Below are positions 2,165 to 44,096 of a DNA stretch of 64,000 nucleotides, one piece after another (the stretch's first letter is position 1; every line of letters begins with the position of its first letter). Under the pieces are notes generated by a model that saw nothing but the letters and a program-made list of their open reading frames with translations, had not been told where the DNA came from and made no database searches. The translations under genes were made by a program, and so were the position numbers. Origin of the DNA: an uncultured Gammaproteobacteria bacterium (GTDB lineage Bacteria > Patescibacteriota > Patescibacteriia > Patescibacteriales > WJLG01); contig CAYNAR010000007.1 in NCBI GenBank assembly GCA_964395625.1, forward strand, positions 2,113 to 66,112, written 5' to 3'.

Positions 2165-4267
2165 ATGTCTAATTTGGATTTCGTTTTCAAGCCGAAGAGC
2201 ATCGCTATCGTGGGCGCTTCGACCAAAGAGGGGAATGTCGGTAACGACATTGTTAAGAATTTGGTTCGTCAGGGTTTTGTCGGTGAGGTTTTTCCGATTA
2301 ATCCTAAAGCTGAAGAGTTGTATGGAGTGAAATGCTACCCGTCTTTGACCGCCGTCGAAAAGAAGATCGATTTGATGGTCGTCGTCGTTCCGGCTGTGGC
2401 TGTGCCTGATGTCTTGGAAGAGGGCGGTAAACTCGGTATTGGCGGTGCTGTCATCATTTCCGCCGGTTTCAAGGAGACCGGAAACCATGAACTCGAAGAG
2501 AAGATCAAGGAGGTTTGCGCTAAATACGATATCGCCATGGTCGGCCCGAACTGCTTGGGCGTAATCAATCCGGATTTATCCATGAACGCTTCCTTCGCCG
2601 CTACTTTGCCTGGCAAGGGAAGCATCGCTTTCATCTCGCAGTCCGGCGCTCTTTGCACCGCCGTTTTGGATAGAGCCAAGTCTATGGGAATCGGCTTTTC
2701 TAAATTCATAAGCGTCGGCAATAAGGCTTCTTCCGACGAGGAGACTATCTTGGAATATTTGGAAAGAGATAAAGAGACTAGCGCCATCGGCGTCTATGCC
2801 GAATCCTTGACTAAGGGTGGCGAATTGATTGAGAAGATTCGTCGCATCAGCGTCGAGCCGAATCCGAAACCGATAATTTTTCTAAAGTCCGGACGCACGA
2901 GCGCCGGTGCTAACGCCAGCGCCTCCCATACCGGAGCTTTGGCCGGCAACGATGCCGCTTATAGCGCCTTGTTCCGTCAGAGTTTGGCTATTCGCGCCGA
3001 GAACGTCACAGAACTTTTCGACTTCTTGAATATATTCGCCAACAACGATTTGAAGCCGGCTCGCCGCTTGGGAATCGTCACTAACGCCGGAGGTCCTGGC
3101 GTGCTTTCCGTCGACGCCGCCGTCGAATGCGGTTTGGAATTGGCCAAGATGGAAGAGCAGAACGTCAACGAATTAGCTTCCTTGTTACCACCGGCCGCTA
3201 GCGCCAAGAATCCTGTCGACGTCTTGGGCGATGCCAAGGCCGATCGCTATTCGATCGCTTTGGAGAATGTCTTGGGCGATCCGAATGTCGATTCCGCCAT
3301 CGTCATCTTGACCCCGCAATCCGTCACCGAGGTCGAAGCGACAGCCAAGATGGTCGTCGAGGCCAAGAATAAGTTCAATAAACCCTTGGCCGCCGTGTTT
3401 ATGGGCGAGGATTTGGTTAAGCCGGGCATAGAGATTCTAAAGGATGGCGGTGTGGCCTCTTATCCGAGTCCGGAACAGGCCGTTAAGTCCTTGGCGGCTT
3501 TAGCTGATTTCTATGATAATTCCCAGAGAAAATACGAGGCCGGAAAAGGTTTCGACGATATCGATAAAGAGGCTGTGGCCAAGATTTTCGCCGAGGCTCG
3601 CGCTCAAGGCCAATTGGCTTTCCCAGAGGCTCGCGCCACTGCGGTTTTGGAAGCCTATGGTTTTCCGGTTTTGAAGACCAATATCGCCCATAGTCGCGCC
3701 GAGGCCGAAGAGATGGCTGCCAAGATCAATACGATTATGGTTTTAAAGATCGTCTCTCCTGACATCTTGCACAAGAGTGACGCCGGCGGAGTCATGCTCA
3801 ACATCATGCCGGAGCAGGTCGGAGAAAAATACGACGAGATGATGGAGCGCGTGGCCAAGAATTGCCCGACCGCCAAATTGGAGGGCGTCATGCTTCGCGA
3901 GATGGTCGTCGATCCGGGCGTGGAAATGATTTTGGGCTCATTCAAAGAACCTTCTTTGGGTCAGACTATTATGGTCGGTTTGGGTGGTATCTATGTCGAA
4001 ATATTGAAGGATGTTTCCTTCGGCTTGAATCCGATCGGTCCAGAGGACGCCGCTTCCATGTTGGAGAATTTGCGCTCTAAGAAGATTCTGGACGGTGCTC
4101 GCGGAGCCAAAGCCGCCGACAAAGGAAAAATCATCGAGTGTCTCTTGCGTTTGTCGCAACTCCTTTCCGACTTCCCGGAAATAAAAGAAATGGATATCAA
4201 TCCGCTTTTGGCCATGGAGAATGGCAAGGGCGCCAAGGTTTTGGACGCTCGTATCGTGATTGAATAA
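2165..4267 (+). CDS. acetyl-CoA synthetase (ADP-forming), fused alpha/beta type
   Basis: N-terminal CoA-binding Rossmann segment ([16 protein letters not shown]), a succinyl-CoA-ligase-like middle and a C-terminal ATP-grasp region. 700 aa. Confidence 0.8.
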
Positions 4268-4280
4268 TTTAAATAAAAAT

Positions 4281-6569
4281 ATGACAAAAAGTAAAAAGGT
4301 TAAGAAGTCTGTCGCTAAGAAATGCGACTGTACTTGCTGCACTTGTTCCCCGATGTCCAAGGAAGGCGTCCTTTTGAACAAGCTTGATGTCAACGGTTAC
4401 ATCAAGAAAAACATCAAACCGTACAATGGTAAGGCCGACTTCTTGTGCGGACCTTCCGACAAGACTAAGAATCTTTGGGAGAAAGCCAAAGGTCTCTTGG
4501 CTCAGGAAATGAAGAATAAGGGTGTCTTGAAGATAGACAATGTCACCGTGTCTTCCATAACCAGCCACTCGGCCGGTTATATCGACCAAGAGTTAGAAAC
4601 GATCGTCGGTTTCCAGACTGATGAGCCACTCAAGAGAGGCATTAAGCCTTTTGGCGGTGTTCGTGTCGTCGAAAAGTCTTGCGAGGAGAACGGCGTCAAA
4701 TTGGATCCGAAGGTTTCGGAGATTTTCACCAAATATCGCAAGACCCATAACGACGGCGTCTTCGATGCCTACACCGAGACCATGCGCGTCTTGCGCAAGA
4801 CCGGAACTTTGACCGGTTTGCCTGATGCCTACGCCCGCGGTCGCATCATCGGCGATTATCGTCGCGCCGCTTTGTATGGTATCGATTTCATCATCGGCAC
4901 CAAAGAGGACGATAAGGCTAAATTGGATAAAGAGGAGTGGAGTGAGGAGTTGATCCGCTTGCGTGAGGATATCAGCGAACAGATCAAGGCCTTGAACGAT
5001 ATCAAGATCATGGCTCAGTCCTATGGCTTCGACATCTCTGGTCCGGCTTTGACCGCTCGTGAAGCTATCCAATGGACATACTTCGCCTATTTGGCGGCTT
5101 TGAAAGAGCAGGATGGCGCCGCTATGAGCTTGGGCAGTGTCAGTAGTTTCTTTGATATATATATTGAAAGAGATATCAAGGCCGGCATTTTGACCGAAGA
5201 GGAGGCTCAGGAATTGGTCGACCAATTCGTCATGAAGTTGCGCCTCATCCGTCATTTGCGCGCCGACGAGTACAATCAGCTTTTTGCCGGCGACCCGACT
5301 TGGCTTACCGAGTCTTTGGGCGGTATGATGTCCGACGGACGTCATAAGGTCACCAAGACTTCCTATCGTTTCTTACAGACTTTGTATAATTTGGGACCTT
5401 CACCGGAGCCGAATATCACCGTTCTGTGGTCGAAAGATTTGCCCGAGACTTTCAAGAGATTCTGCGCCAAAGTCTCCGTCGAGACATCTTCCATACAATA
5501 TGAGAACGATGATATCATGCGCGAGGCCGGCGATTGCGACGATTACGGCATCAGCTGTTGCGTCTCTCGCTTGTCCTTGGGCAAGGAGATGCAATATTTC
5601 GGCGCTCGTTGCAACGGAGTGAAGGCTTTGCTCCTGGCGATCAACGGCGGAGTCGACGAGATGACCGGCTTGAAGATAATGGATGGGATAAAACCGTCCA
5701 AGACCAAGACCCTCTCTTACGAGGCTGTGATGGCCGAATTCAAGAAGAGCGTCTCTTTCTTGGCCAGAGAATACGTCAAGACGATGAACGCCATCCATTG
5801 GATGCACGATAAGTACTACTACGAACGCGCTCAGATGGCTTTCGTCGATAGCGACGTGAAACGCATCGTGGCCTTCGGCTTGGCCGGACTTTCCGTAGCC
5901 GCCGATTCCTTGTCCGCCATCAAATACGCCAAGGTCTATCCGAAGCGCGACGAAAAGGGTATCGCCGTCGATTTCGAAGTGAAAGGCGACTTCCCTAAAT
6001 ACGGCAATAACGACAAGCGCGTCGACGACATCGCCAAGATGTTGGTGAAGATGTTCATCACCGAACTACGTAAGCACTGGATATATCGCGAAGCCTTCCC
6101 GACTCTTTCCATATTGACCATCACTTCCAATGTGGTCTATGGCAAAAAGACCGGCGCGACACCGGATGGTCGTAAAGCCGGCGTCCCTTTCGCCCCGGGA
6201 GCCAATCCGATGCACGGACGCGACACCAACGGCGCTATCGCTTCGCTCAATTCCGTCGCCAAGCTCTCTTATGACGATGCGCGCGACGGTATCTCCAACA
6301 CCTTCTCGATCACCCCGAATACCTTGGGTGCGACCGACGAAGAGAGGACCGGCAACCTAGTCGCTTTGCTTTCCGGATACTTCGCCAAAGGCGCCCATCA
6401 CCTCAATGTCAACGTGCTCAATAAAGAGACTTTGAAGGATGCCATGGAACATCCGGAGAAATATCCGCAATTGACGATCCGCGTCTCCGGCTATGCCGTG
6501 AACTTCGTCCGTCTGTCTCGCGAACAACAACAAGAAGTGTTGTCCAGGACATTCTTTGAATCGATGTAA
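4281..6569 (+). CDS. pflB: pyruvate formate-lyase (glycyl radical enzyme)
   Basis: C-terminal glycyl-radical motif RVSGYAVNF and active-site CC (GISCCVS). The first ATG is at 4281; the track start at 4260 is a TTG. The N-terminus has an unusual Lys/Cys-rich extension. Confidence 0.9.
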
Positions 6570-6580
6570 TAATCTCAGAC

Positions 6581-6612
6581 AAAACCCCGACCTCAATGGT
6601 CGGGGTTTTGCT
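6581..6612 (+). terminator. rho-independent terminator after pflB
   Basis: AAAACCCCGACC / GGTCGGGGTTTT forms a perfect 12-bp stem with loop TCAAT. Confidence 0.85.
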
Positions 6613-6642
6613 ATGAAAATCCATACGAGAGTTTGTTGTCGG

Positions 6643-6743
6643 AAGTGGTAAATTATCTTGGCAGCTATTATGATTGTTAGTAGGATATTTAAGAAAAAAA
6701 TGATTTATTATTAATAAAAAGTTAAAAACGCTGAAAGTAAAGA
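6643..6743 (+). repeat. decayed duplicate of the 3' end of the HUH transposase-like gene (homologous to 9576-9668)
   Basis: A 20-bp block TTAGTAGGATATTTAAGAAA is identical at 6677-6696 and 9613-9632. Flanking blocks also match (GAAGTGG, TGATTTATTAT, AAAACGCT, AAAGTAAAGA). The copy at 6643 has frame-breaking indels. Confidence 0.7.
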
Positions 6744-6852
6744 GTTAACTACGGCACAATACTAATAACTAAATTAATACTTGATATGTATTTGAAATAA
6801 TGCTAAGGTTTATTGAAATAATTATTATTTTAGTATTTTTTGTTTTGAATAA

Positions 6853-7027
6853 ATAAAAAAGAAGATAAATAGAAAAAAATTTGTCTGGGCGTTGTTGATC
6901 CTGCGACGACCTTAATAAAGTTTAGTTAATGTGCTTTTCCTTGTGTCTTGGTTGTTTTGTTTACGGCACAAGTGTACATCTGTGTGCTTATGCAGAGAGT
7001 GAAATCGCTGTTTATCTTCTTTTTTAT
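6853..7027 (+). ncRNA. candidate retron msr-msd non-coding RNA, bracketed by a2/a1-like inverted repeats
   Basis: Perfect 17-bp inverted repeat: 6853-6869 ATAAAAAAGAAGATAAA and 7011-7027 TTTATCTTCTTTTTTAT. It extends to 20 bp with one G-U. GC-rich hairpins at 6887-6911 and 6940-6972 lie inside. The 3' arm overlaps the RT ATG. Confidence 0.5.
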
Positions 7028-8180
7028 GGATCTCAAATTGATTGCAGAGGATAATGTTTTAATTGAAAAATTTAAAAAACTTAGTAGTAGGGATGATGTT
7101 GCTGATATGCTGGAAGTTAGTTTAAAAACTTTGAATTTTTTTCTCTATATAAACAAGAGGAAAAATTATAAGAGTTTTTCAATTAAGAAAAAAAATGGTG
7201 GTGAGAGAATTATCTTGGCACCGGTTTCATCTTTAAAAATAATACAGAAAAAATTGTATTATATTTTAAGTTTAGTGTATACAAATCCAAGACCATCTAT
7301 CCATGGTTTTTTATCTGAAAAAAGTATTATTACTAATGCCTCTGAGCATGTAAGGAAGAATTTGATTTTAAATGTGGATTTGGAAAATTTTTTTGGGACT
7401 ATTACTTTTCCTAGGGTTTTTGGTCTTTTAAAAAAGCCGCCATATAATGTTTCCGAAAAAGCCGCAGTCGTTTTGGCTCAGATATGTACACATGAAGGTG
7501 TTCTGCCTCAGGGTGCTCCAACTTCACCGATTATATCAAATATGATACTTTCAAGAATGGATCGGGAACTTCAGTCTTTGGCTAGAGAGAATAGTTGTTA
7601 TTATACTAGATATGCAGATGATATAACTTTTTCAACTACTCAGCGATTAATTTCTAAAGAAATTGTAGATTATGATAATACTGGTAAGTTTAGGCTTGGT
7701 CTAGGGTTGATTAATGTTATAAATAAAAATAAGTTTAAAATTAATTCTGACAAGATTAAATTTAATAACAAAAGACAAAGACAGGAGGTGACCGGGTTGA
7801 TCGTTAATAAAAAAGTTAATATTAAGCGAGGCTTTATTAGACAAGTTAGAGCAATGCTCCATGCTCTTTATAAATTTGGAAAGAAAGATGCTGAGAGGGA
7901 GTATTATGAAAAATACGTTTTTAATAAAAACACCGGACCATTTACCAGAAATAGAAATTTTTTAGAAGTTGTTAAGGGTAAATTAAATTTTATAAAAATG
8001 GTTAAGGGTTTTTCCGATCCGCTTTATGTTAAATTAGCTAAGAAGTTTAACACGATTTATGGTTCAGAGGCTTTAAAATATTTTGATTTAGGGAAAGTAA
8101 TTTTAGTTTTAAGTAATGAGGATGATTTAAAAAAACCAGAAGATATTAAGGAGTCAACGCAGGGAACGGGATTTTTTTAG
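7026..8180 (+). CDS. retron-type reverse transcriptase
   Basis: Motifs: KKKNGGERIILAP, ITNASEHV (NAxxH), LNVDLENFF, LPQGAPTSP, YTRYADDITFS (YADD at 7611-7622) and QEVTGLIVNKK (VTG). Start taken at MDLK (7026) because the 6948 TTG extension would run through the structured ncRNA. The frame ends ...QGTGFF then TAG on a T7 run. Confidence 0.85.
   Translation: MDLKLIAEDNVLIEKFKKLSSRDDVADMLEVSLKTLNFFLYINKRKNYKSFSIKKKNGGERIILAPVSSLKIIQKKLYYILSLVYTNPRPSIHGFLSEKSIITNASEHVRKNLILNVDLENFFGTITFPRVFGLLKKPPYNVSEKAAVVLAQICTHEGVLPQGAPTSPIISNMILSRMDRELQSLARENSCYYTRYADDITFSTTQRLISKEIVDYDNTGKFRLGLGLINVINKNKFKINSDKIKFNNKRQRQEVTGLIVNKKVNIKRGFIRQVRAMLHALYKFGKKDAEREYYEKYVFNKNTGPFTRNRNFLEVVKGKLNFIKMVKGFSDPLYVKLAKKFNTIYGSEALKYFDLGKVILVLSNEDDLKKPEDIKESTQGTGFF
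8172..8178 (+). other. T7 homopolymer at the RT/protease frame junction (candidate -1 slippage site or indel)
   Basis: Sequence is GGA TTT TTT TAG. A -1 shift or one extra T gives ...GTGFF-LVDYGFVTCWHV... The protease frame is open from 8150. Confidence 0.6.
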
Positions 8181-8194
8181 TCGATTATGGATTT

Positions 8195-8659
8195 GTGACA
8201 TGTTGGCATGTTTGGGATTCTAATATTAAGCCAACGGCATTTAGATATGATAATTTTACCAAGAAAAATACTTTAACACAGACAACAGAAAAACATGAGA
8301 GTATTGATTTAGTTGTTTTGTCGGTAGACGGCTTAAAATTGCAAAAAGATGATTTTTTGAAGATTGGAAAGACTGACAGCGTTAAAATTGGAGAGGCTGT
8401 TAAATGCTATGGTTTTGGTGGATACAGTAATGGGTGCTTACCAGTTATTGTAGAATCACAAATAGATAGCATGAAAAGTATTTCTTCGGTGAAGTATTTT
8501 GTCGTTGGCGGAAATATTCGTGGAGGGCAAAGTGGGGCTCCGGTTTTAAATAAAAACAATGAGGTTATTGGAGTTTTGGTAAAAAGTATTAATGCAGGCA
8601 ATGAAGAAAATTTAGTTATATCAATAGATGCATTAAAGTTTTTGAAAAAAATAAATTAA
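8195..8659 (+). CDS. trypsin-like (S1/Trypsin_2-type) serine protease domain, probably the C-terminal part of an RT-protease fusion
   Basis: Triad: His in TCWHV (8207-8209), Asp in SIDLVVL (8306-8308), Ser in GGQSGAPV (8531-8533). The expected N-terminal GTGFF strand sits in the RT frame. The track start is a GTG with no SD. Confidence 0.75.
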   Translation: MTCWHVWDSNIKPTAFRYDNFTKKNTLTQTTEKHESIDLVVLSVDGLKLQKDDFLKIGKTDSVKIGEAVKCYGFGGYSNGCLPVIVESQIDSMKSISSVKYFVVGGNIRGGQSGAPVLNKNNEVIGVLVKSINAGNEENLVISIDALKFLKKIN

Positions 8660-8685
8660 TCTTTTCGTGTTTTTTATTTTCCCAT

Positions 8686-8703
8686 AACTCTTTTAACTCT
8701 TTT
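8686..8703 (+). repeat. tandem 9-mer AACTCTTTT x2 abutting the left inverted repeat
   Basis: Copies at 8686-8694 and 8695-8703 are identical and lie just before the left inverted repeat GGGGTCAGGTCT (8705-8716). Confidence 0.6.
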
Positions 8704-8704
8704 A

Positions 8705-8716
8705 GGGGTCAGGTCT
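8705..8716. repeat. left 12-bp inverted repeat GGGGTCAGGTCT flanking the HUH gene
   Basis: Exact reverse complement of 9666-9677. Confidence 0.75.
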
Positions 8717-8792
8717 GGAATTAAGACTTTTTTGTTTCAAAACAAGGCAGTTAGTGATAAAATAGAATTATAAAAAATTAAAGGAGGGGAAA

Positions 8793-9659
8793 ATGGCTAG
8801 ACCAATAAGGATACAATATCCTGGTGCTTTTTATCATATAATGACTCGGGGCAATAGACGCTCTAGTATATTTGATTCCACGGAAGACTATCAAGATTTT
8901 TTGATAGTCTTTTTTAATATCATAAAGAGATATAATTGGACTTGCTACGCCTACTGTTTAATGCCTAATCATTATCATTTGTTAATCAGAACTAATGATG
9001 CCAATTTATCTTTAGGCATGAGGCAGTTGAATGGTGTTTACACCCAGAACTATAATATTAGACACAAAAGAGTTGGTCATCTTTTTCAAGGAAGATTTAA
9101 ATCAATATTGGTAGAGGAAGAAAATTATAAATATCAATTAATAAGATATATAGCCTTGAATCCATTGAGAGCCAATATTGTTCAGGTGATAGAAGGCTGG
9201 AAATGGAATAGTTGTTTAGAGGTGATGAATAAAATAGCCATGACCGGCTGTGTGGAGATAAAGGAAATACTCTCTAATTTTGATCAGGACGAAAATAAAG
9301 CCAGGGAGGTGTTTTTAAATTATTTAACAAATAAAATAGAAGATGAGAATAGTCTAAGTAGTCTGAAAGGGGGTATAATATTAGGCTCGGTTGAATTTGT
9401 AGATAAAATAAAAGGCTATTTAAGAATTAAAGAGAAAGAATTAGAAATACCAGTAAAAGAAAGATTGGTTTCCAGGCCATCTCTGGAAGAGCTGTTTGAT
9501 GACAAAATAATAACAAGAGAGACAAGAAATAGGGCAATATATGTGGCGCACGTTGGCTATGGATATTTACTCTCAGAAGTGGCAAATTATTTAGGTATTC
9601 ACTATACTACTATTAGTAGGATATTTAAGAAAGAAAATGATTTATTATCAAAACGCTAA
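8793..9659 (+). CDS. HUH/Y1 transposase-like protein (IS200/RAYT-like) with a C-terminal HTH
   Basis: HUH motif in MPNHYHLLIRT and the catalytic-Tyr region RYIALNPLRA. C-terminal HTH-like segment is LSEVANYLGIHYTTISRIFKK. Strong RBS AAAGGAGGGGAAA. Confidence 0.75.
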   Translation: MARPIRIQYPGAFYHIMTRGNRRSSIFDSTEDYQDFLIVFFNIIKRYNWTCYAYCLMPNHYHLLIRTNDANLSLGMRQLNGVYTQNYNIRHKRVGHLFQGRFKSILVEEENYKYQLIRYIALNPLRANIVQVIEGWKWNSCLEVMNKIAMTGCVEIKEILSNFDQDENKAREVFLNYLTNKIEDENSLSSLKGGIILGSVEFVDKIKGYLRIKEKELEIPVKERLVSRPSLEELFDDKIITRETRNRAIYVAHVGYGYLLSEVANYLGIHYTTISRIFKKENDLLSKR

Positions 9660-9665
9660 AAGTAA

Positions 9666-9677
9666 AGACCTGACCCC
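9666..9677. repeat. right 12-bp inverted repeat AGACCTGACCCC
   Basis: Reverse complement of 8705-8716, starting 7 bp after the gene's stop codon. Confidence 0.75.
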
Positions 9678-9847
9678 AATATCATTAAGTGAGCAGATTA
9701 GTAATTATTTTACTAAAATTCTAAAATCTGCCAATCCTACCAAGGCACCAAACTATTGGACAATGCCAAAAAAAGATAGTAGAAATGCCCCATCAAAAAC
9801 TAATTACACAACAAAACCAGTTGATTTAAAAGTTATAATAAAAAGTA

Positions 9848-10198
9848 ATGAAAAATAATTTTTTGATTAAAAATAAATTAAAATATGCGCTGGGTGTGAC
9901 ACTGTTTGTTATATTCGTGCTATTTTCTTTTTGGCTTACTAGTTTAAATGATTCGGGAATAGGCGGATTAATAAAACAAGGCAATGAGGTTGTTGAAAAA
10001 ATTGAAGATTTTAGAAAGATAAGTGGCCGTTTGCCCGATTCCTTAAAGGAAATTGGTGTATACGAATCCGAACAAGGCCCAATTTTTTATGAGAAAAGAG
10101 GTGATTCCGAATATGCAATATTTTTTAGTATAGGTTTTGATGAGATGAAAGCATATTATTCCGATTCAAAAAAATGGGAAGATTCTTATCGGAAATAG
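9848..10198 (+). CDS. hypothetical membrane-anchored small protein
   Basis: 116-aa ORF with one N-terminal hydrophobic helix (ALGVTLFVIFVLFSFWL). Protein-like composition. No recognisable motif. Confidence 0.45.
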   Translation: MKNNFLIKNKLKYALGVTLFVIFVLFSFWLTSLNDSGIGGLIKQGNEVVEKIEDFRKISGRLPDSLKEIGVYESEQGPIFYEKRGDSEYAIFFSIGFDEMKAYYSDSKKWEDSYRK

Positions 10199-10548
10199 AA
10201 CTTAATTAAATAATGATTTCCCTTTCCTATAATGTATAATTATATAGGAGCATGTAGGTTTATATTTTGTTTTCTCCTCCCGCATTCGCGCTTAGTTTTT
10301 CTGATGAATAGACGATTGTTCCATTAAGATATGATCAAAATGTTTACGTCGGTGGAGTTTAGCCTCGGGCGGGCATACTCGATTTGTTTCTCACATTGAA
10401 GCTGGGCCACTGGTGATCGCACTCTGATATTTCGTGGCGCGGGTCCTTTTCCCTCTAGCGAAAGAGAGAGGATGAAAATTTGTTACTGGCAAGGTTGTCA
10501 GGTAAAAATACGAATGTAAAGAAAATATTAGTTATTTGTTTTATTTTC

Positions 10549-34905: not shown

Positions 34906-37900
34906 ATGACCAATAGGCTTAGAAAAATATTACTATCCGCCTTTTTACTGATCGGTTTATTCGCGATCGGCAATTCCGTTTTGGCTGCCGCCGATGTCGG
35001 AATGGGAGGGTTCGGCGCCGTCACGCAGCTAAGCAATACGGACCCTCGTACTGTAGTCGCCAATGTCATACGTATTATTTTAGGATTTTTGGGCGTGATC
35101 GCCATAGGTTTGATAATCTATGCCGGAGCTATCTGGATGCTTTCTGGCGGCAATGAGAAGAATATCGATAAAGCCAAAAAGATATTGGTGAGCTCTGTTA
35201 TTGGTCTAATAATAATATTAGCTTCCTTTGGTATAACCACGTTTTTGTTGAATAGTATTTTGAATGCAACTGGCACCGGTTCTGGTACCGGTTCCGGGCC
35301 GGGTGGCGTTATAGTTCCGCCTGGTGGAGGACCAGGCTCTTCTTGCGATGGCATTACACTGACTCCGCTTTGCGAAGCGGACGATAGTCTTTGTGGTTCT
35401 GGTCTTTATTGTAATCCTGGTACTTGTACATGTACTGTTGGTGGCGGTATTGGTGATCCGTGTGATTCTGATGTGGCTTTGGCCGATTGTCAGGCTAGTG
35501 GGGCTATGTGTATGCCTGGTCTTTCTTGTAATACAACTACTTGTCTTTGTGAGAGTGGTTCCGGTGTAGGTATAAATTGCGATTCCGATGTCGCAGCCGG
35601 ATGTCAAGCCTCTGATGCTATATGTTCCAATCTCTTGACTTGCGACAATGGTACTTGTACTTGTGAAGAGAGGCCTTTGATACAATGGATTAGTCCGCAA
35701 GGAGGTTTTTGCGATGATTTTCCGAATCAAGTCTGTTTAAATGATTCGGATTGTTCTTCGGGAACGTGCAATGTATCCACTCCTAATGCAGCTTCTGGTA
35801 ATATAATAACCATCATGGGCCGATATTTTGGGACAACCGTCGGTCAGGTCAATTTTTGGGATGGTGCCGGTTTTACGATTCCCGGCGTTTTACCATCCAC
35901 CATCAATTCTCAGTGTAGTTCTTTCTGGAGCGATGATCAGATAATGATGGTCGTTCCTGTTGGCGCTGTCTCCGGTCCTGTGCAAGTCGTAAGATCTGAT
36001 CTTTTCTCCGATACGACCAATGATGCTCATGGCACGGTTATAGACGATTTAAGAGTTAATGCGATATCTCGCCCCGGTCTTTGCAGGATTGATCCTGATA
36101 ATGGGTATTTAAACGATCCGGTGGCTTTACACGGCGTTAATTTCCCCACAGTCTTGTCAGAGGCTCGTTTTGGTAATTATCACTCCTTTGTTTCCGGTAC
36201 CAACTCCGTTTTTTATACCGCGACCTTAGCTAACACTCTTACCCCTAATATAAACTCGGGGAAAACTACAGCCTTCGTGTCAGGTTCGGCGGGGGAGCTT
36301 AGTAACTATGTCAGATTTGGTAAGAATAGCGAGGATGATCGTGGTCCATATATCGTTTCTTTTTCGCCGACATCTGGTGCCCCTGGTCAATATATAACAA
36401 TATATGGGTCTGGTTTCGGTTCGAGTAGGGGTAGTAGTGCCGTTTATTTTGGTGATGAGACTGGCTATGAAGTCGATTATTCGTTTCCAACGATTTGCGA
36501 TGATAGTGTCTGGTCTGATAGTCAGGTTATAGTCAAGGCGCCTTCGACCGCTCCAGATGGTAATTATACGATAACCATGGTAATAGGTGCTCGTACCATA
36601 GACACATCGGCTTTGGCTACTAATCAGTTCAATTTAAACAGGTCTTTGTCTTTGGCGCCTTCCCTCTGTAAGATATCTCCTCCGATAGGTGATGTGGGGG
36701 TAGAGGTTTCCGTTTGGGGTGAGTATTTCGACACACTTAACGCTTCGAGCCGTGTTAGATTTTATAACGATAAAGACGCTGTCGGCACAAATATAGTTTT
36801 CTGGAATCAAGACCAGAGTTTCAACTCCGGTTCTAGACCGGATAGAGCCGACGTTTTAGTCCCGGCCGGAACGATAACAGGCCCAGTCAAGGTCGGTAAA
36901 GGTGCGGGTATGCTTTTTGGAAATGCTTTGAACTTTCAAGTAGGTAGTTGTTTGGAGGCGCCTGATCCGAATAATGCCTGTTCTCCGGAGATTTGCTGTC
37001 CGGAGGGAACTCCGGAAGCCGGGCGCTGTGTCGCTACGACGAACGATTGTTTCGCCGATATAAAGTCCAGTGTCTATGAGTGGGATTTCAATACGGGCAT
37101 AACGACGTCTCCGTCCGGTCCGTCCACGCCTTTCTTTAGCTGCACGGAAAGAAGTCGTTTGCTAAGTCTTTGCGATAACGTGATATGTCCGAATTCGGCT
37201 GGTGAATGCTCTCCTTATGATAATGTTTTCTCAACCATGGAGAATGTTGGTAAGAGCTGTGTCTATAATTGTGACAATGTCGGCTCTTGCGGTGTTGGTG
37301 GTTGCACATACAACAGTTCTTTGGATGTCTGCGTGGCTAATGTCGGCACTTCTTGCAGTTTGCCGATTGCCGCGACTAATGTTTCGGGTGCCACGGTCGA
37401 AGCTTTCTGCGAGCAATATCAGGGTAACAACAGACGAGTTATCTATTTGAGTGGAAACGAGGGTTGTCCTTCCGGTTGGATTAAGGCTTCTTTACCTTCT
37501 GATGGTGGGGTGGAATTAGTTTGTGTCGATCCTTCTTCCACTTGCAATGTTTGTAGTACCGGTTTTGTATGTACTCCCGACAACGCTCCTGTCCCTAGCG
37601 GTATTTGCATAGCTCCTGGAGATATTTGCCCGTCCGGATCGGCTTGTCAGTCTGATAATCGTTGCAAAAAGCTAGTAGCTGATGAGTGTCAGTGTTGTTG
37701 TCGTAAAGCCAATGCCAACCAAGATTGTTGTTATCCTTTGACCTGTGCCGGTACTTGTGGAAGTGATAAGGCTACCGATACCGGGACTTACGGATCTTGC
37801 AGTGGTTGTCGTATAGAGGTTGGTGGCGTTGTCAATCAAGCGGCTTCGGATGCTGCCTGCAATTGTTCAGGTTCTTTCGGTAAATATTGCGATACTAGCA

Positions 37901-40728
37901 TTGACGTGAATGCCGATGGCGTTGCCGATGGTGTTTGTAACGACTGCGCTCAATTAGCTAATAATAATTCTTGCACCAATCATAGCGCTTCGTGCTGTGT
38001 CGACGCGACAAGAAGTGATGTTTGTACTGGAAGAAGGTACGGTTCCGGTGGTAGTGATGTGTTTGATTTGGTGGTTAGCGGTGGCACGGCTTATTGCGGT
38101 TACTATTCTTGTTCGACCAATAACACGACTTGCGATGGAACCGCCGATGTAGGCCCTTTCGCGTCCGGTGTCAATTTCTTTAAAAAATTCTCGGATTGTT
38201 CTAATAGATGTAACCCACCAACGCCTTTTGGTGTCTCTTGCGTGAATACCGACAACACGGCTTGTGCGGCTTCTATCTGTTCTCTTGGTGCTTCATGTCG
38301 CAATGATTCAGGGGCCTCTCTCTTTCCGGATTGTGGTGTTTGCTGTTGCGACCCTTCCAACGATCAGTGTTCTTTAATAGGAAATCCTAATTTACGCTGT
38401 GAAGCCGATAAGAGCCCGTGCGGTGGAGCTAATCGAGGTCTTTGCTGCGGTTGTAATTCCAATTCCGAATGCGTCGCCTCTCCGGCGTTGCCGATAGCGA
38501 CCGGTTGCGGTCTGGATGGTTGTTGCAGAGCTAGGCCGGAAATAATAAACACCGCCCCGCAAGACGATCAGAGTAATGTCTGTACTAATATCGAAATACA
38601 GGCCATATCCAGTGTTGCGATGGATAGTGGTAGTGTCACCGGTAATATAATAGTCGTCGGCGAGTACGTAACACCATGCCCGGAGGGAACGGTTTACTTA
38701 TCTTTGAATCAAGACTCGCAAAATACTAATAGCTTGTTGAGGGGAGTCAAAGTCGCATGGAATTCCATTAAGAGTATCTTTAATAAGGTTATGGGCTCCG
38801 ATGTCCTAGCTAGCGACCCTCCGTTGGCTTTCATGAATTATTGTGCCGTTCCTGGTGTCGTAGCCGTCGAACATGTCGATCCGGAAGACGAGAGCCAGCC
38901 ATCGATATTGAAATTTCGTCCTTCAAAAATTCTCGATACCGACAGAAAGTACTTTGTCATAGTCAAGGGTGATGAGAATCTCGATAACACTAATGGAGTA
39001 AAGAGTTCTTGGGGTATCGGAATGAATACTCCTGTCGGGGCTATAGCCGGAATCAGGACTGATAATTCTTCGACCTTTAACGGAACTAGCTATGCCGGTT
39101 CTTTCATATGGTCTTTTAGAACTCGCCCTAATAATGGTGGCAATAAGGGTATTTGCGACATAGATCATGTTGCTATAACCCCTAAATCTTATTTATTTAA
39201 TAGGTTGGAACAAGACTTGAACGAAGATGATAATAATCCGTCCGGCAAGACTTTTGACACTGTTAGAGATATAGATAAAAAGTTCACGGCCAGGGCGTTG
39301 AGTTCCAGAGGTGAAGTTTTATCCTCTGCTACCGGCTATTCATGGAATTGGAGTTGGAACGTGGATGATGTTGCTGTTGTGAGGTTTATAAATCCTGCGC
39401 CATTCGCCGTCGACAGTGGCGAACAATTAATCTCGGCTTTTGACAATATAACCGATCGCAAGGCTAAAGTTACCGCTACCGTCAATCTCATAGACTCGAC
39501 TTTGTCTTCTGCTGGAAATGGTCAATCGGCGACAGCTGAAGTTTATGTGTTTAGGTGCGCTAATCCTTGGCCAGGTTTTGTCGCTGGGACTTGGCGTCCT
39601 TGGAGAGATAATCCGGATGCTATGAATCCCTATTGTGTCGGTGGCACTTGTATGGATATGGGTTATGAATTGTATTATTGCAGGGATAGTGGTTCGGAGG
39701 GTACGGCCGATGATTTGCCGGTGATCTCTTCTGGAACAACCGTTGGCAGTGGAGTATCCACGGATGTTTTGAAGGAATCATATTTCTTCAGACAAGCTCC
39801 GCCCGTAGTCGAAGGGGTTGATTTTATGGTGGAACCTGTTCCAAGTGGTGGGGAAGTGCGACTTAATTGGGATGCCGTAGTAGATCCAGCTGGCGAGCAG
39901 GTCGTTTCCAAATACAATATTTATTATAGTCAAAAATCTGGCGCACCGTACGCTTTTTCTATTTCTGTGCCAGTAGCGGATGCGCCGTATATATCTTCTA
40001 ATTCTCCAGTGTCGGTAACCGGCCTGGATAAAACTAAGGATTATTATTTTGCCATAACAGCAGTATATGATAGTGGAGAGGAAAGTACTTATTCTAAAGA
40101 GGTTGCAGTCAGGCCAGCTGATTCCTTCCCGCCAGCGAGTCCTATTAACATCATTGCTGAGGCGGGCAGGAAAGACGTGGTGGTTAATTCGTCGATTTCC
40201 GCTAGTGATTGGAGTTCGACAGTGCAGGAGACTATTAGCGCCAAAGTTAGTTTTTCGCTTTCTCCTAATGAGTTATTGAAGCATTTAAGGACTTTTGATT
40301 TGCGATGGGGGACTGCGATAGATGATTATCCGAATATTGTTTCTGTGCCGGCGAGAGAGGCTTTGGTTAATGGTGAAGATTTGAAGGTTGTTGGTGATTT
40401 TTCTGCTGGAACCCCTTATTATTTCATAGTTTCGGCAACGCGACTGGATAATTCTTATTCCGAAACTTCAGGAGTTGTTAAAGTTGTCTTTGATTCCGGT
40501 GGTGCAACAAGTATCGAGCCAATGGTTGCTGATGATGTTGGTGATTTTGAAATAGCGATTCCCTCTGGGACTATAAAAGTTTCTTGGCCCCCCAATACCG
40601 ATGATGCTGTAAAGTATAATCTTTATTGGGGCGCTAATCATGCCAGTTATGGCGAGAAAATAGAGGTCGGGGGGCGCGATGCTTTATCGGGGGGGGATGG
40701 AGAAGGAAGCCTCTTTTTCTTATGGTAA
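34906..40728 (+). CDS. giant surface protein 2, N-terminal 1,940 codons (reading frame broken at a G8 tract)
   Basis: Has the same pilin-like N-terminus and three tandem ~35-aa Cys-rich modules. Also has IPT/TIG-like domains (ISPQGG..., FSPTSGAPGQYITIYGSGFG, ISPPIGDVGVEVSVWGEYF) and FN3-like domains near the end. Confidence 0.8.
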   Translation: MTNRLRKILLSAFLLIGLFAIGNSVLAAADVGMGGFGAVTQLSNTDPRTVVANVIRIILGFLGVIAIGLIIYAGAIWMLSGGNEKNIDKAKKILVSSVIGLIIILASFGITTFLLNSILNATGTGSGTGSGPGGVIVPPGGGPGSSCDGITLTPLCEADDSLCGSGLYCNPGTCTCTVGGGIGDPCDSDVALADCQASGAMCMPGLSCNTTTCLCESGSGVGINCDSDVAAGCQASDAICSNLLTCDNGTCTCEERPLIQWISPQGGFCDDFPNQVCLNDSDCSSGTCNVSTPNAASGNIITIMGRYFGTTVGQVNFWDGAGFTIPGVLPSTINSQCSSFWSDDQIMMVVPVGAVSGPVQVVRSDLFSDTTNDAHGTVIDDLRVNAISRPGLCRIDPDNGYLNDPVALHGVNFPTVLSEARFGNYHSFVSGTNSVFYTATLANTLTPNINSGKTTAFVSGSAGELSNYVRFGKNSEDDRGPYIVSFSPTSGAPGQYITIYGSGFGSSRGSSAVYFGDETGYEVDYSFPTICDDSVWSDSQVIVKAPSTAPDGNYTITMVIGARTIDTSALATNQFNLNRSLSLAPSLCKISPPIGDVGVEVSVWGEYFDTLNASSRVRFYNDKDAVGTNIVFWNQDQSFNSGSRPDRADVLVPAGTITGPVKVGKGAGMLFGNALNFQVGSCLEAPDPNNACSPEICCPEGTPEAGRCVATTNDCFADIKSSVYEWDFNTGITTSPSGPSTPFFSCTERSRLLSLCDNVICPNSAGECSPYDNVFSTMENVGKSCVYNCDNVGSCGVGGCTYNSSLDVCVANVGTSCSLPIAATNVSGATVEAFCEQYQGNNRRVIYLSGNEGCPSGWIKASLPSDGGVELVCVDPSSTCNVCSTGFVCTPDNAPVPSGICIAPGDICPSGSACQSDNRCKKLVADECQCCCRKANANQDCCYPLTCAGTCGSDKATDTGTYGSCSGCRIEVGGVVNQAASDAACNCSGSFGKYCDTSIDVNADGVADGVCNDCAQLANNNSCTNHSASCCVDATRSDVCTGRRYGSGGSDVFDLVVSGGTAYCGYYSCSTNNTTCDGTADVGPFASGVNFFKKFSDCSNRCNPPTPFGVSCVNTDNTACAASICSLGASCRNDSGASLFPDCGVCCCDPSNDQCSLIGNPNLRCEADKSPCGGANRGLCCGCNSNSECVASPALPIATGCGLDGCCRARPEIINTAPQDDQSNVCTNIEIQAISSVAMDSGSVTGNIIVVGEYVTPCPEGTVYLSLNQDSQNTNSLLRGVKVAWNSIKSIFNKVMGSDVLASDPPLAFMNYCAVPGVVAVEHVDPEDESQPSILKFRPSKILDTDRKYFVIVKGDENLDNTNGVKSSWGIGMNTPVGAIAGIRTDNSSTFNGTSYAGSFIWSFRTRPNNGGNKGICDIDHVAITPKSYLFNRLEQDLNEDDNNPSGKTFDTVRDIDKKFTARALSSRGEVLSSATGYSWNWSWNVDDVAVVRFINPAPFAVDSGEQLISAFDNITDRKAKVTATVNLIDSTLSSAGNGQSATAEVYVFRCANPWPGFVAGTWRPWRDNPDAMNPYCVGGTCMDMGYELYYCRDSGSEGTADDLPVISSGTTVGSGVSTDVLKESYFFRQAPPVVEGVDFMVEPVPSGGEVRLNWDAVVDPAGEQVVSKYNIYYSQKSGAPYAFSISVPVADAPYISSNSPVSVTGLDKTKDYYFAITAVYDSGEESTYSKEVAVRPADSFPPASPINIIAEAGRKDVVVNSSISASDWSSTVQETISAKVSFSLSPNELLKHLRTFDLRWGTAIDDYPNIVSVPAREALVNGEDLKVVGDFSAGTPYYFIVSATRLDNSYSETSGVVKVVFDSGGATSIEPMVADDVGDFEIAIPSGTIKVSWPPNTDDAVKYNLYWGANHASYGEKIEVGGRDALSGGDGEGSLFFLW

Positions 40729-41665
40729 TACAGCAGGAAGATTTTTTATAGCCGTTTCAGCTGTGGATGCTTCCGGGAATGAAAGTGCTTTTTCTGATGA
40801 GATAATCGTTATTCCTAGCCAATCTAGTTATACTTTTCGCAATGCCTTGGCTAATGTGGATTTCGAGTCCGGTGCTATCGGCGGATTACCTGCGTATTGG
40901 TCAAGGGCGACACAGGTCAGGTCTTCTGTCGGCATAAGTGACGCTTTTTCTTTTTCCGGAAATCAAAGCCTTCGCTTGTACCAAGCGCCGAATATACCAT
41001 ACCCCGGCGTTTGTGGAAGCGATTTGAATGATAGAGTAGCCCCAGCTTATGAAGCCTATCCTTTTTCCAGTTACCTGACCTACAACGGTTCTAATTGTAC
41101 TTTTTCAAGCACTCTCGATTGCAATGCCGGCGGACCATGCATAGTTTCGAATGGCAGTTCCTTGCCATGGCCCTATACTAACAGGGTTATGTGGGAATCT
41201 TTGTCTTATAATGTGTCTAATTTGCCTTGGGAGGTTGGAGAGGATTATTTAGTAGCTTTTTATTATAAGGGAAATTTAGCCGCTAGTACTAGACCGATAT
41301 TGAATTTCGATTTGGGTTGGGGTGCTCAATGTAGGGGGGTAATAGCGGGAGGGTGTTCGGCTTGGGGTGCCGGATGGTTCGTCTGTCCTGACAATTCGTC
41401 GGCATGTTGTCGATATCCATTACAGAGGGATTGTTATCCGAGTCTTTACATGCCGGTTATCCCTGCTGGTAATTACAACAGTGGACCTTATGATGGTTGG
41501 AACTTGTATTTCGATACTTTTACATACACTGAGGATCTGGCGGGTATATACGACATTTCTAATAATTTGCGCAATATGATAGGTCTTTCTATCGGGTATA
41601 ACAATACTGGAGCCGGAACTGATTTTTATGTCGATGATTTTATCGTAGCGAAGAAAGTTAAATAA
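40679..41665 (+). CDS. C-terminal continuation of giant surface protein 2 (separate ORF only because of the G8 frame break)
   Basis: The translation completes the FN3 domain begun in the previous frame: ...YNLYWG...SGG | MEKEASFSYGNTAGRFFIAVSAVDASGNESAFS. No SD of its own. Confidence 0.7.
   Translation: MLYRGGMEKEASFSYGNTAGRFFIAVSAVDASGNESAFSDEIIVIPSQSSYTFRNALANVDFESGAIGGLPAYWSRATQVRSSVGISDAFSFSGNQSLRLYQAPNIPYPGVCGSDLNDRVAPAYEAYPFSSYLTYNGSNCTFSSTLDCNAGGPCIVSNGSSLPWPYTNRVMWESLSYNVSNLPWEVGEDYLVAFYYKGNLAASTRPILNFDLGWGAQCRGVIAGGCSAWGAGWFVCPDNSSACCRYPLQRDCYPSLYMPVIPAGNYNSGPYDGWNLYFDTFTYTEDLAGIYDISNNLRNMIGLSIGYNNTGAGTDFYVDDFIVAKKVK
40689..40696 (+). repeat. G8 homopolymer at the frame break of the giant gene
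   Basis: Sequence is TCG GGG GGG GAT. With seven G the two ORFs fuse into one 2,252-codon frame. A G6 run lies at 40669-40674. Confidence 0.8.
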
Positions 41666-43653: not shown

Positions 43654-44096
43654 AAATAAATAAGATGGTAGAAATCAACAATGCTGCTCGAGCGGTTTTC
43701 GACAAAAAGGCCCTCAAGGAGGTCAGCGAGTATTTTTTAAGGAAGTTTAAGCTGACAAGGCGTTCCGTTTCCATGGCTTTCGTCACCGCCAACGAGATGA
43801 AAAAACTCAACCTAGCCTACAGAGGAAAAAACAAGACGACAGATGTCCTGTCTTTCGAGGGCGAGGATGATTTTTTGGGTGAGATAATCTTCGATTATGA
43901 GCAGATAAAGAAACAAGCCGAAGAGTTGGGGCATTCAGCTAAAAAAGAACTCCTCTTCATAGCTATTCATGGGTTATTGCACTTGATAGGCCGTGAGGAC
44001 GATAAGGAATGCGATCGGCTTGGAATGATTGCCGAGGGAGAAAAGATACTGGAGGATTTTAATAAAAAAAATGCTAAACATAAAAAGACTGTTTAA
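43650..44096 (+). CDS. ybeY: rRNA maturation RNase YbeY
   Basis: Metal-binding motif IHGLLHLIGRED (H-x-x-x-H-x-x-x-x-x-[HD] region). 148 aa. Confidence 0.85.
   Translation: MKINKMVEINNAARAVFDKKALKEVSEYFLRKFKLTRRSVSMAFVTANEMKKLNLAYRGKNKTTDVLSFEGEDDFLGEIIFDYEQIKKQAEELGHSAKKELLFIAIHGLLHLIGREDDKECDRLGMIAEGEKILEDFNKKNAKHKKTV

Follow-up and report, generated by a model that had tools for sequence, protein, structure and literature searches.

A frameshifted type XI retron RT-protease gene, interrupted at a run of seven T in a 30% GC island

Fusions of a retron reverse transcriptase (RT) with a protease are an already known kind of bacterial anti-phage gene. Type XI retrons (clade 8 RTs, Mestre et al. 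2020; RT-Protease_XI in PADLOC, where it is annotated as a single gene) are defined by this covalent fusion (PMC7736814), and the non-coding RNAs (ncRNAs) of clade 8, type XI have been experimentally validated (PMC10849725). Retron Eco2 (Ec67), a type I-C RT-TOPRIM fusion, is the one RT-effector fusion with a solved structure, and its msDNA has been proposed to keep the effector part of the fusion caged (PMC12916289). Homopolymers placed right before a premature stop, at which one added base yields the full-length protein, are described in Citrobacter rodentium tssM1 and Thermus thermophilus dnaX, where the runs are 9-11 nt long and the effect was shown experimentally (PMC4256274, PMC5009743); for tssM, frameshifting was shown in a second species as well, Yersinia pseudotuberculosis. 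A further class is corrective or adventitious frameshifting, in which a homopolymer indel within a gene is compensated at a low level (PMC5009743).

The locus described here lies in a stretch of 64,000 nucleotides that was analysed as a whole (the window), and it resembles type XI retrons in its NAxxH/YADD/VTG RT, its full-length profile match, and its a1/a2-flanked ncRNA directly upstream. It differs from them in that the type-defining single ORF is broken by an apparent 1-nt deletion. With Eco2, the best structural match to the RT part, it shares the RT clade and the logic of one protein, whereas the Eco2 effector is a TOPRIM RNase, not a protease, and the Eco2 ORF is continuous. In contrast to tssM1 and dnaX, the run is 7 nt long and occurs in one lineage only; with the corrective class the locus shares an indel in a homopolymer, for which any low-level compensation is putative. 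All parts of a type XI retron are present, in an island of 30% GC, but the RT-protease gene is frameshifted, and the locus is filed here as a frameshifted derivative of type XI, not as an intact member.

Anatomy and family assignment of the locus

Seven T at 8172-8178 (the T7 run) close the RT frame, which reads GGA TTT TTT TAG with the stop at 8178-8180, and the -1 frame, which has no stop between 8147-8149 and a TAA at 8657-8659, is open from position 8150. This arrangement, an RT frame stopped by T7-TAG beside a -1 frame open from 8150, had been put forward in the initial annotation, and both coordinates were verified on the sequence. The -1 frame holds 169 stop-free codons (about 1e-7 expected by chance at the local base composition), and the other two frames hold 17-18 stops across the identical stretch. 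One added T, or a slip back by one base, leads to ...QGTGFF-LVDYGFVTCWHV..., a product of 544 aa from the ATG at 7026, where the RT start was placed because the N-termini of homologues align there. The RT product of the gene caller is 396 aa and begins at ATG 6990, i.e. within the ncRNA. The seamless fusion of about 544 aa that had been proposed was thereby recovered, with a junction free of gaps in an alignment of 31 sequences, where the indel falls between F383/F384 and L385. The RT and protease pieces are one gene; the split falls in the protease's first core strand, and a one-base change in the T run restores the frame. Slippage targets are numerous in this gene, which has five runs of 7-8 A or T, among them T7 runs at 7136 and 7388. 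A promoter and terminator scan of 6500-8900 returned nothing above shuffled expectation.

Table. Features of the retron locus (window coordinates)
Feature	Coordinates	Strand	Remarks
a1 arm, 5′ inverted repeat	6853..6872	+	20 nt, 95% complementary to 7008-7027; 135 nt between arms
a2 arm	7008..7027	+	overlaps bases 1-2 of the RT start codon
candidate msr-msd ncRNA	6853..7027	+	flanked by the a1/a2 repeat; fold of 6845-7035 at z -5.3
frame-0 gene part	7026..8180	+	retron RT (residues 1 to ~345), linker, first protease strands to GTGFF (residue 384), TAG
internal AAGGAG (Shine-Dalgarno-like)	8148..8153	+	18 nt before the T run; codes Lys-Glu of a variable linker
T7 run, site of the frame break	8172..8178	+	putative former T8 (GGA TTT TTT TTA = Gly-Phe-Phe-Leu)
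-1-frame rest of trypsin-like (HtrA/DegP-like) protease	8177..8659	+	residues 385-544 of the restored protein; TAA end
154-aa ORF as called, GTG start	8195..8659	+	judged not a stand-alone gene
palindrome ACATG-TTGG-CATGT	8198..8211	+	5-bp hairpin, -2.5 kcal/mol, 19 nt past the T run

The restored 544-aa protein matched PADLOC RT-Protease_XI over residues 15-538 (profile positions 2-501 of 506, E 4.8e-164), Pfam RVT_1 over residues 53-259 (E 2e-20), and Pfam Trypsin_2 over residues 380-517. The last profile was covered in full (1-144 of 144) and begins at residue 380, which makes GTGFF the start of the protease domain and agrees with its earlier reading as the first beta-strand. On the basis of the alignment, the RT motif residues N104 and H108 (NAxxH), D198 and D199 (YADD, residues 196-199), and T256 and G257 (VTG, residues 255-257) are invariant, and Y196, A197 and V255 nearly so. 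Across the break, G380 and F383 are invariant in the RT frame, and L385, T392, C393, H395, D428 and S503 in the -1 frame; these include the catalytic triad of His395 (8207-8209), Asp428 (8306-8308) and Ser503 (8531-8533). An AlphaFold model (pLDDT 86.8) matched HtrA1, DegP and MucD over about 190-210 columns and places the frame break in the middle of the strand 380-385. The top structural matches of the RT part were retron RTs, with 9lm3 and 9i2f (Eco2) as the best (E 1e-27, 34% identity). In all, retron RT motifs, a collinear C-terminal trypsin-like protease and an adjacent a1/a2 ncRNA are present as in type XI, and the one uninterrupted RT-protease ORF of the type is broken at T7/TAG, 8172-8180.

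In the minimum-free-energy fold, a1 and a2 pair as the stem that closes the structure. The fold of 6845-7035 reached -54 kcal/mol vs. -35.1 for shuffled sequences (z -5.3), and none of 200 shuffles was as good. A comparable repeat, here meaning at least 14 pairs with G-T allowed and an end no more than about 25 nt from where the RT is inferred to start, was present at about 15 of the 26 related loci, the arms being 96-137 nt apart; in two loci (L037 and L075) the a1/a2 repeat ends 28-38 nt past the inferred RT start. An Rfam scan of 6000-10500 at E-values up to 1 returned no retron RNA family and two chance-level matches only. The locus is predicted to produce msDNA.

The T7 run in assemblies and in relatives

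Logan contigs from the SRA runs SRR27710297, SRR16642441 and SRR11845635 (L001, L082 and L083) all read GGGA-T7-AGTCG and carry the same two gene calls. They are 99.9-100% identical to the window across the island and free of gaps, so the reads look accurate, and judging by the accession numbers the runs were deposited years apart. T7 is the only allele in public data, including a collection of 15 billion proteins, a point that tells against a plain deletion. A sequencing or assembly error, with a T8 and an uninterrupted fused gene in the true genome, was suggested by the position of the break in a homopolymer and by a second homopolymer break in the same window, but T7 is shared by four assemblies that go back to three SRA runs, which makes an error extremely unlikely. 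No length polymorphism of the T run was seen across these four assemblies, consensus contigs being unable to reveal minor alleles. Within the island, the population sampled shows almost no variation (nearly clonal, with 0-2 SNPs per comparison of 2-9 kb), and the fixation of T7 therefore says little.

Among the homologues listed, 115 of 120 are single proteins of 514-645 aa with both domains. At the nucleotide level, one frame reads through at 25/26 loci from genomes and at 48/49 from metagenomes (73/75 in total). Nearly all of these relatives are fused and none is split at the T run, which is the outcome, at their distance, of the comparison of fused and split orthologues that had been proposed. 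The two exceptions are L059, which is broken near residue 322 by an extra base at GG, and L129, broken between residues 405 and 459; neither break sits in a long homopolymer. A frame shift at the T-run site is used by none of the 73 intact or 2 broken relatives. In-frame runs of T5-T7 occur in relatives at the matching Phe-Phe/Leu codons (e.g. GCT TTT TTT CTG in L043), and the gene has a T run because these codons spell one. The best non-self match among the homologues listed is 43% identical, which makes the locus a divergent family member, and a search for close orthologues in which to compare the T run found none, so that the comparison of the site covers distant relatives. L081, the match of which ended at query residue 385, was considered as a second break at the same site and ruled out, as it is an RT-TIR fusion (type XII-like). 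Four proteins (P0105, P0092, P0099 and P0114) that appeared as truncated type XI genes are RT-only by Pfam, with 63-71% query cover and other C-terminal domains.

The sole start codon available to a separate protease ORF is the GTG at 8195, with only GGA 3 nt upstream and no convincing Shine-Dalgarno (SD) sequence, and the resulting 154-aa ORF would begin three residues ahead of the catalytic His, without the strands 359-363, 380-385 and 389-392. The earlier remark that such an ORF lacks both an SD and its N-terminal strand therefore stands. A working two-piece system, in which RT(1-384) and the 154-aa fragment would be made apart by reinitiation at GTG 8195 and would reassemble by strand complementation, draws on the short distance of this GTG from the stop (15 nt, near enough for termination-reinitiation) and on L059, another split, where the ATG of the second ORF lies exactly at the break. 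The missing SD, the loss of three N-terminal barrel strands, the covalent fusion that defines the family (PMC7736814), and the lack of any relative split at the T7 site nevertheless leave this arrangement with hardly any credibility.

Recoding context of the T7 stop

In programmed recoding, the T7-UAG would have been selected, and -1 slippage or insertion of a U would set RT-protease at a small, constant share of the product, with RT alone in excess, so that a toxic effector would be held at a low dose. Points consistent with this are a whole protease part with its triad kept, the T7 allele in every assembly, and a U run immediately before the stop with AAGGAG upstream. There is also precedent: in C. 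rodentium tssM1, 11 A precede the stop and the ratio made by slippage is functionally required (PMC4256274), and in another retron subtype, II-A2, a recurrent frameshift lies between domains (PMC7736814). Against these stand the absence of such a shift from all 73 intact relatives and both broken ones, the weakness as evidence of an allele fixed in a near-clonal island, and the TAG itself, which arises automatically once TTT TTT TTA G loses one T. In addition, the trimeric msDNA-bound complex of Eco2 consists of subunits each of which is a complete RT-effector fusion (PMC12916289), and excess RT would therefore have no obvious role.

The nucleotide context was compared with known slippage sites. 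Insertions in transcripts cluster in A/T runs, and their frequency grows exponentially as the run gets longer (PMC5574713). In bacteria, slippage is efficient at runs of at least 9 A/T, those of proven sites being 9-11 nt (PMC5009743, PMC4256274), and the run here is 7 nt; U_UUU_UUU is moreover a comparatively poor -1 site in Escherichia coli (PMC5009743). Read against the slippery heptamer X XXY YYZ, the zero frame is A UUU UUU UAG, in which the first base is mismatched; two Phe codons are able to re-pair in -1, or the P-site tRNA may slip while the stop occupies the A site. The T7-UAG resembles the classic context of a slippery run plus shifty stop, reportedly described by Weiss et al. in 1987. 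The U run meets the stop directly and the context is in this respect shift-prone, which was counted against a plain deletion.

In dnaX-type -1 sites the SD-like stimulator acts best at about 10-14 nt. At the T7 site, neither a structure 5-9 nt downstream nor an SD-like element about 10-14 nt upstream was found: the AAGGAG lies 17-21 nt from the shift site, beyond the usual spacing, and the fold of 8179-8258 was no better than shuffled (z -0.78). The AAGGAG is probably incidental, the hexamer occurring 45 times in the window vs. 33 expected. As an SD for an internal start it was rejected, there being no start codon that it could serve at its spacing (ATT 8171 is 17 nt away). The small downstream hairpin noted earlier is present, but at 8198-8211 and not at 8199-8212, and it is weak and too distant from the run. 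The palindrome is left unused in the minimum-free-energy structure, spells the Thr-Cys-Trp-His-Val of the conserved TCxHV motif, and recurs identically in 2 of 21 relatives by codon choice; it is a coding by-product, not a frameshift stimulator. Taken together, programmed recoding is improbable. A related reading, in which the T7-UAG is a selected leaky switch with most ribosomes making RT alone, which loads msDNA, and a few percent of transcripts or ribosomes shifting to give RT-protease, is similarly improbable; if true, it would provide a sub-stoichiometric dose of a dangerous protease, and be the first case of a recoding-controlled effector dose in a retron.

Probable loss of one T and its implications

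An indel, an assembly error, and a programmed frameshift or slippage setting a ratio had been offered without ranking; the indel fits best, the assembly error is essentially refuted, and the programmed shift is not supported. Probably, the break is a real deletion from T8 to T7, ordinary and possibly reversible, which leaves the effector domain off or strongly attenuated. An ancestral GGA TTT TTT TTA (T8, Gly-Phe-Phe-Leu) would have lost one T in this lineage by replication slippage, a kind of deletion to which homopolymers are prone, and the deletion itself would create the TAG stop. The main product would then be an RT of 384 residues, probably still msDNA-competent, which stops partway through the protease's first core strand and so lacks the effector. 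The remainder of the protease, with its triad intact, would be reached only by a small fraction of events regaining the frame, when RNA polymerase adds a U in the run, or when the ribosome with tRNA-Phe slips back by one base with UAG in the A site. Such rescue would be low-level and incidental; in the data of PMC5574713, no transcription error was found that restores the reading frame of a pseudogene. From these features we infer a T8 ancestor, a low level of rescue and loss of the defence function.

As a point against the deletion, the protease part has no second lesion: its 169 stop-free codons at 33% GC keep every invariant residue, so either the break happened recently, or selection still acts on what lies downstream. 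The ratio of protease to RT divergence (0.65) is low for the family (range 0.63-0.82) but within its range, and so is no guide to decay. The locus could be a young pseudogene, or a T7/T8 switch that is reversible and was caught in its OFF state.

Phase variation, with frequent interconversion of T7 and T8 by slipped-strand mispairing, a defence gene reversibly ON or OFF, and assemblies that represent an OFF majority, is a special case of the deletion just described and does not contradict it, and it is rather unlikely. It would suit a homopolymer inside a costly, toxic accessory gene with an undecayed protease part downstream, and the same window holds a second homopolymer break, a G8 in the gene of a giant surface protein. 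This second frame break at 40689, mentioned in the initial annotation, is real: a scan for homopolymers at which a change of one base merges long frames returned 8172 and the G runs at 40669 and 40689, and Logan contigs from two runs end exactly at the G8 tract, one of them showing C+G7 where the window has C+G8. Homopolymers at 44064 and 58392 were dismissed as frame breaks, being merely between adjacent genes (ybeY/dgkA and dehydrogenase/gatA). The T run, unlike the G run, was crossed cleanly by all three Logan assemblies, however, and no T8 allele occurred in any assembly or protein collection. For efficient phase variation, A/T tracts of 7-8 are rather short.

The finding is mainly a point of annotation, in that the calls of a 396-aa "RT" and a 154-aa "Trypsin_2" protein together represent one frameshifted type XI gene, and the locus should not be counted in surveys as a protease-less or split retron architecture. 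A shift under selection would mean recoding-based dose control of a toxic defence effector, which the present evidence does not favour. As a divergent member of its family, about 43% identical to its nearest relative and with a clearly delimited ncRNA, the locus provides a natural test case for whether retron effectors are silenced by homopolymer slippage.

The frame break and the restored RT-protease

The reverse transcriptase (RT) frame ends as ...CAG GGA ACG GGA TTT TTT TAG, in which seven T (T7) run into the stop codon, and the protease continues in the -1 frame. Re-reading of the sequence confirmed the coordinates of the T7 run, the TAG, the open -1 frame and the fusion of about 544 aa proposed in the initial annotation. 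The two remaining frames hold 17-18 stops over the stretch that is open in the -1 frame, the chance expectation of which is ~1e-7. One added T, or a 1-base back-slip, gives ...QGTGFF-LVDYGFVTCWHV..., a 544-aa protein to which the residue numbers below refer. The junction is gap-free in alignment with 30 homologues (consensus QGTGFMLxGxGLVTCxHV), in which the RT frame supplies invariant G380 and F383, and the -1 frame invariant L385, T392, C393, H395, D428 and S503, which places the indel within the T run. The simplest ancestor would be T8 (GGA TTT TTT TTA), as deletion of one T from it makes the TAG by itself.

Pfam assigns two domains to the restored protein, RVT_1 at residues 53-259 and, matched over its entire profile (1-144 of 144), Trypsin_2 at 380-517. 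PADLOC RT-Protease_XI, a model annotated as a single-gene system, matched residues 15-538 (E 4.8e-164), and the gene belongs to type XI in the retron classification by Mestre et al. In the AlphaFold model from the homologue alignment (mean pLDDT 86.8), the break falls mid-strand (380-385), with additional protease strands at 359-363 and 389-392. By Foldseek, the RT part was structurally similar to retron Eco2 (E 1e-27, 34% identity), and the C-terminal part to the proteases HtrA1, DegP and MucD over ~190-210 columns, more than the 160 residues past the break. The called 154-aa protease ORF starts three residues ahead of the catalytic His, and according to the model would be without three barrel strands, which bears out the earlier remark that a separate ORF needs a GTG lacking a Shine-Dalgarno (SD) sequence and misses its N-terminal strand. 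With this late start, no convincing SD and the missing strands, it is not plausible as a stand-alone protease, and a working two-piece system is highly improbable.

Coordinates of features at the retron locus and at the second frame break (window positions)
Feature	Position	Detail
Low-GC island	~6500-10500	~30% GC
GC-rich hairpin	6580-6610	perfect, 13 bp
a1/a2 inverted repeat	6853-6872 and 7008-7027	20 nt, 95% complementary, 135 nt between arms
RT ORF	6948..8180	start at ATG 7026 supported by homology
Stop in -1 frame	8147-8149	
AAGGAG	8148-8153	
Open -1 frame	from 8150 until TAA 8657-8659	169 stop-free codons
T7 run	8172-8178	
RT stop codon	8178-8180	TAG
Called protease ORF	GTG 8195	154 aa
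Palindrome	8198-8211	-2.5 kcal/mol, starts 19 nt past T run
IS200-like Y1 transposase gene	8793-9659	288 aa, Pfam Y1_Tnp residues 14-121
G6 and G8 runs	40669-40696	ORFs 34906..40728 and 40679..41665
G8 run	40689-40696	

Retron RNA and the low-GC island

The inverted repeat lies directly upstream of the RT, with its a2 (3') arm overlapping the RT ATG. The 191-nt repeat region folds at -54 kcal/mol (-35 in shuffles, z -5.3), and the predicted fold has a long closing stem and internal hairpins, as expected of msr-msd. Similar repeats, with at least 14 pairs (range 14-24, G-T pairs allowed) and arms 96-137 nt apart, were present in about 15 of the 26 related RT-protease loci (L002, L004, L007, L008, L014, L017, L023, L025, L028, L031, L037, L043, L046, L059 and L075); the 3' arm ends at or shortly ahead of the RT start, no more than ~25 nt from its inferred position, except in L037 and L075, where it ends 28-38 nt past it. 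The repeats of type XI loci are compatible with a canonical a1/a2 msr-msd. No recognisable ncRNA was assigned to type XI in the classification of Mestre et al., 2020; a later experimental census lists type XI (clade 8) among those with validated ncRNAs (PMC10849725), so the candidate ncRNA is expected rather than new.

Core genes on both sides of the island have ~50% GC. The Y1 transposase gene, with its own AAGGAG ahead of it, is located just downstream of the retron within the island, which may be mobile now or formerly. The GC-rich hairpin (CAAAACCCCGACC/GGTCGGGGTTTTG), with T-rich sequence next to it, directly follows the pyruvate formate-lyase gene at the left boundary of the island and is probably the terminator of that gene; a simple terminator scan did not pick it out.

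Homopolymer runs in separate assemblies

The NCBI and Logan records both hold a 396-aa RT call and a 154-aa protease call. GGGA-T7-AGTCG and the identical two gene calls were found in Logan contigs of three separate SRA runs, SRR27710297 (L001, 8873 bp), SRR16642441 (L082, 3403 bp) and SRR11845635 (L083, 2169 bp), which align gap-free to the window with 0-2 substitutions across the island. A fused 544-aa allele was absent from the protein collection searched. T7 in three runs and the lack of a fused allele make a homopolymer assembly error, one of the possibilities raised in the initial annotation, very unlikely; minor T8 alleles could lie beneath the assembly consensus. L001 departs from the window at 80 positions within 3703-5897, chiefly in the third base of codons and clustered in the acetyl-CoA synthetase-like and pyruvate formate-lyase genes that flank the island (22 of them in 145 nt at 3703-3847), and is identical over 5898-10297, the whole retron island included. 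Because of these differences in flanking core genes, L001 follows a different strain path; either the island is identical in several strains, or strain paths are mixed in the contig.

The second homopolymer frame break noted earlier, at 40689, is real: the G8 run interrupts a giant, cysteine-rich protein of surface type within an FN3-like domain, and a frame of 2255 codons is regained when one G is taken out. At this tract Logan contigs of two SRA runs end exactly, one of them (L165) beginning with C+G7 versus C+G8 in the window, whereas the T run is traversed. This suggests that the tract varies in length (phase variation) or that poly-G is hard to sequence, and on either count the G8 tract is a better candidate than the T run.

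Programmed shift or one-base deletion

Among the 120 best homologues, 115 combine the two domains in one protein of 514-645 aa, and by tblastn, counting loci that contain the protease part, one-frame read-through was seen in 25/26 genome and 48/49 metagenome loci. The two exceptions break elsewhere, neither at a long homopolymer: L059 (Parcubacteria group MAG, JACPLU010000002.1; 3940-3970) near residue 322 (GKINFVK/MVKGQK), with one extra base at GG and a second ORF beginning at an ATG exactly on the break, and metagenome contig L129 between residues 405 and 459, in the protease domain. This is a pattern of sporadic lesions, and the shift is not shared by the relatives compared, the closest of which is about 43% identical. 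Relatives carry in-frame T5-T7 at the corresponding Phe-Phe/Leu codons (T6 in L010, L028, L030, L090, L098 and L110; GCT TTT TTT CTG in L043), and the T run is a side effect of encoding the conserved G-F-[FML]-L strand, and is naturally prone to mutation.

No stimulatory fold beyond that of shuffles was detected in the 80 nt after the T run (z -0.78), and the hairpin pointed out earlier is unused in that fold. Its palindrome is present, with corrected coordinates (table); it is spelled by ACA TGT TGG CAT GT, the Thr-Cys-x-His-Val catalytic-His motif, and an equal one occurs in 2/21 relatives, by codon choice. The AAGGAG is 17-21 nt from the shift site, a spacing that exceeds the usual stimulatory distance for an SD-like element, and with 45 hexamers observed against 33 expected in the window is a mild curiosity. 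Efficient bacterial transcriptional slippage involves runs of at least 9, and U_UUU_UUU ranks low among -1 sites in E. coli (PMC5009743). The best analogue of a slippage-set product ratio, C. rodentium tssM1, has a run of 11 A (PMC4256274) versus T7 here. Transcript insertions increase exponentially with A/T run length (PMC5574713), so T7 should yield some U8 transcripts, but few.

Judged from the relatives in one frame, the frameshift or slippage proposed in the initial annotation does not appear to be programmed family-wide, and the local signals are weak as well. These same observations weigh against selected recoding at this T7-stop, which we consider unlikely, although continued protease use is suggested by an undecayed protease part (no further stop or indel, all invariant residues kept), by a protease/RT divergence ratio of 0.65, inside the family range of 0.63-0.82, and by the U run with a stop directly after it, a textbook case of 'slippery run, shifty stop'. 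The population sampled is close to clonal across the island, so both the undecayed protease and the 'fixation' of T7 are expected of a recent event. A genuine, non-programmed one-base deletion, including both a reversible phase-OFF state and a young pseudogene, is the probable explanation; it corresponds to the inactivating or phase-variable indel among the possibilities raised in the initial annotation. By such a deletion, a single RT-protease gene of a type XI retron would have lost one base from a T8 run, uncoupling the effector domain from an RT and ncRNA that look intact, and full-length protein would arise only via reversion of T7 to T8 or low-level, unselected slippage. The initial annotation described the frame break correctly and carefully; the phenomenon is an ordinary one, and the family is known.
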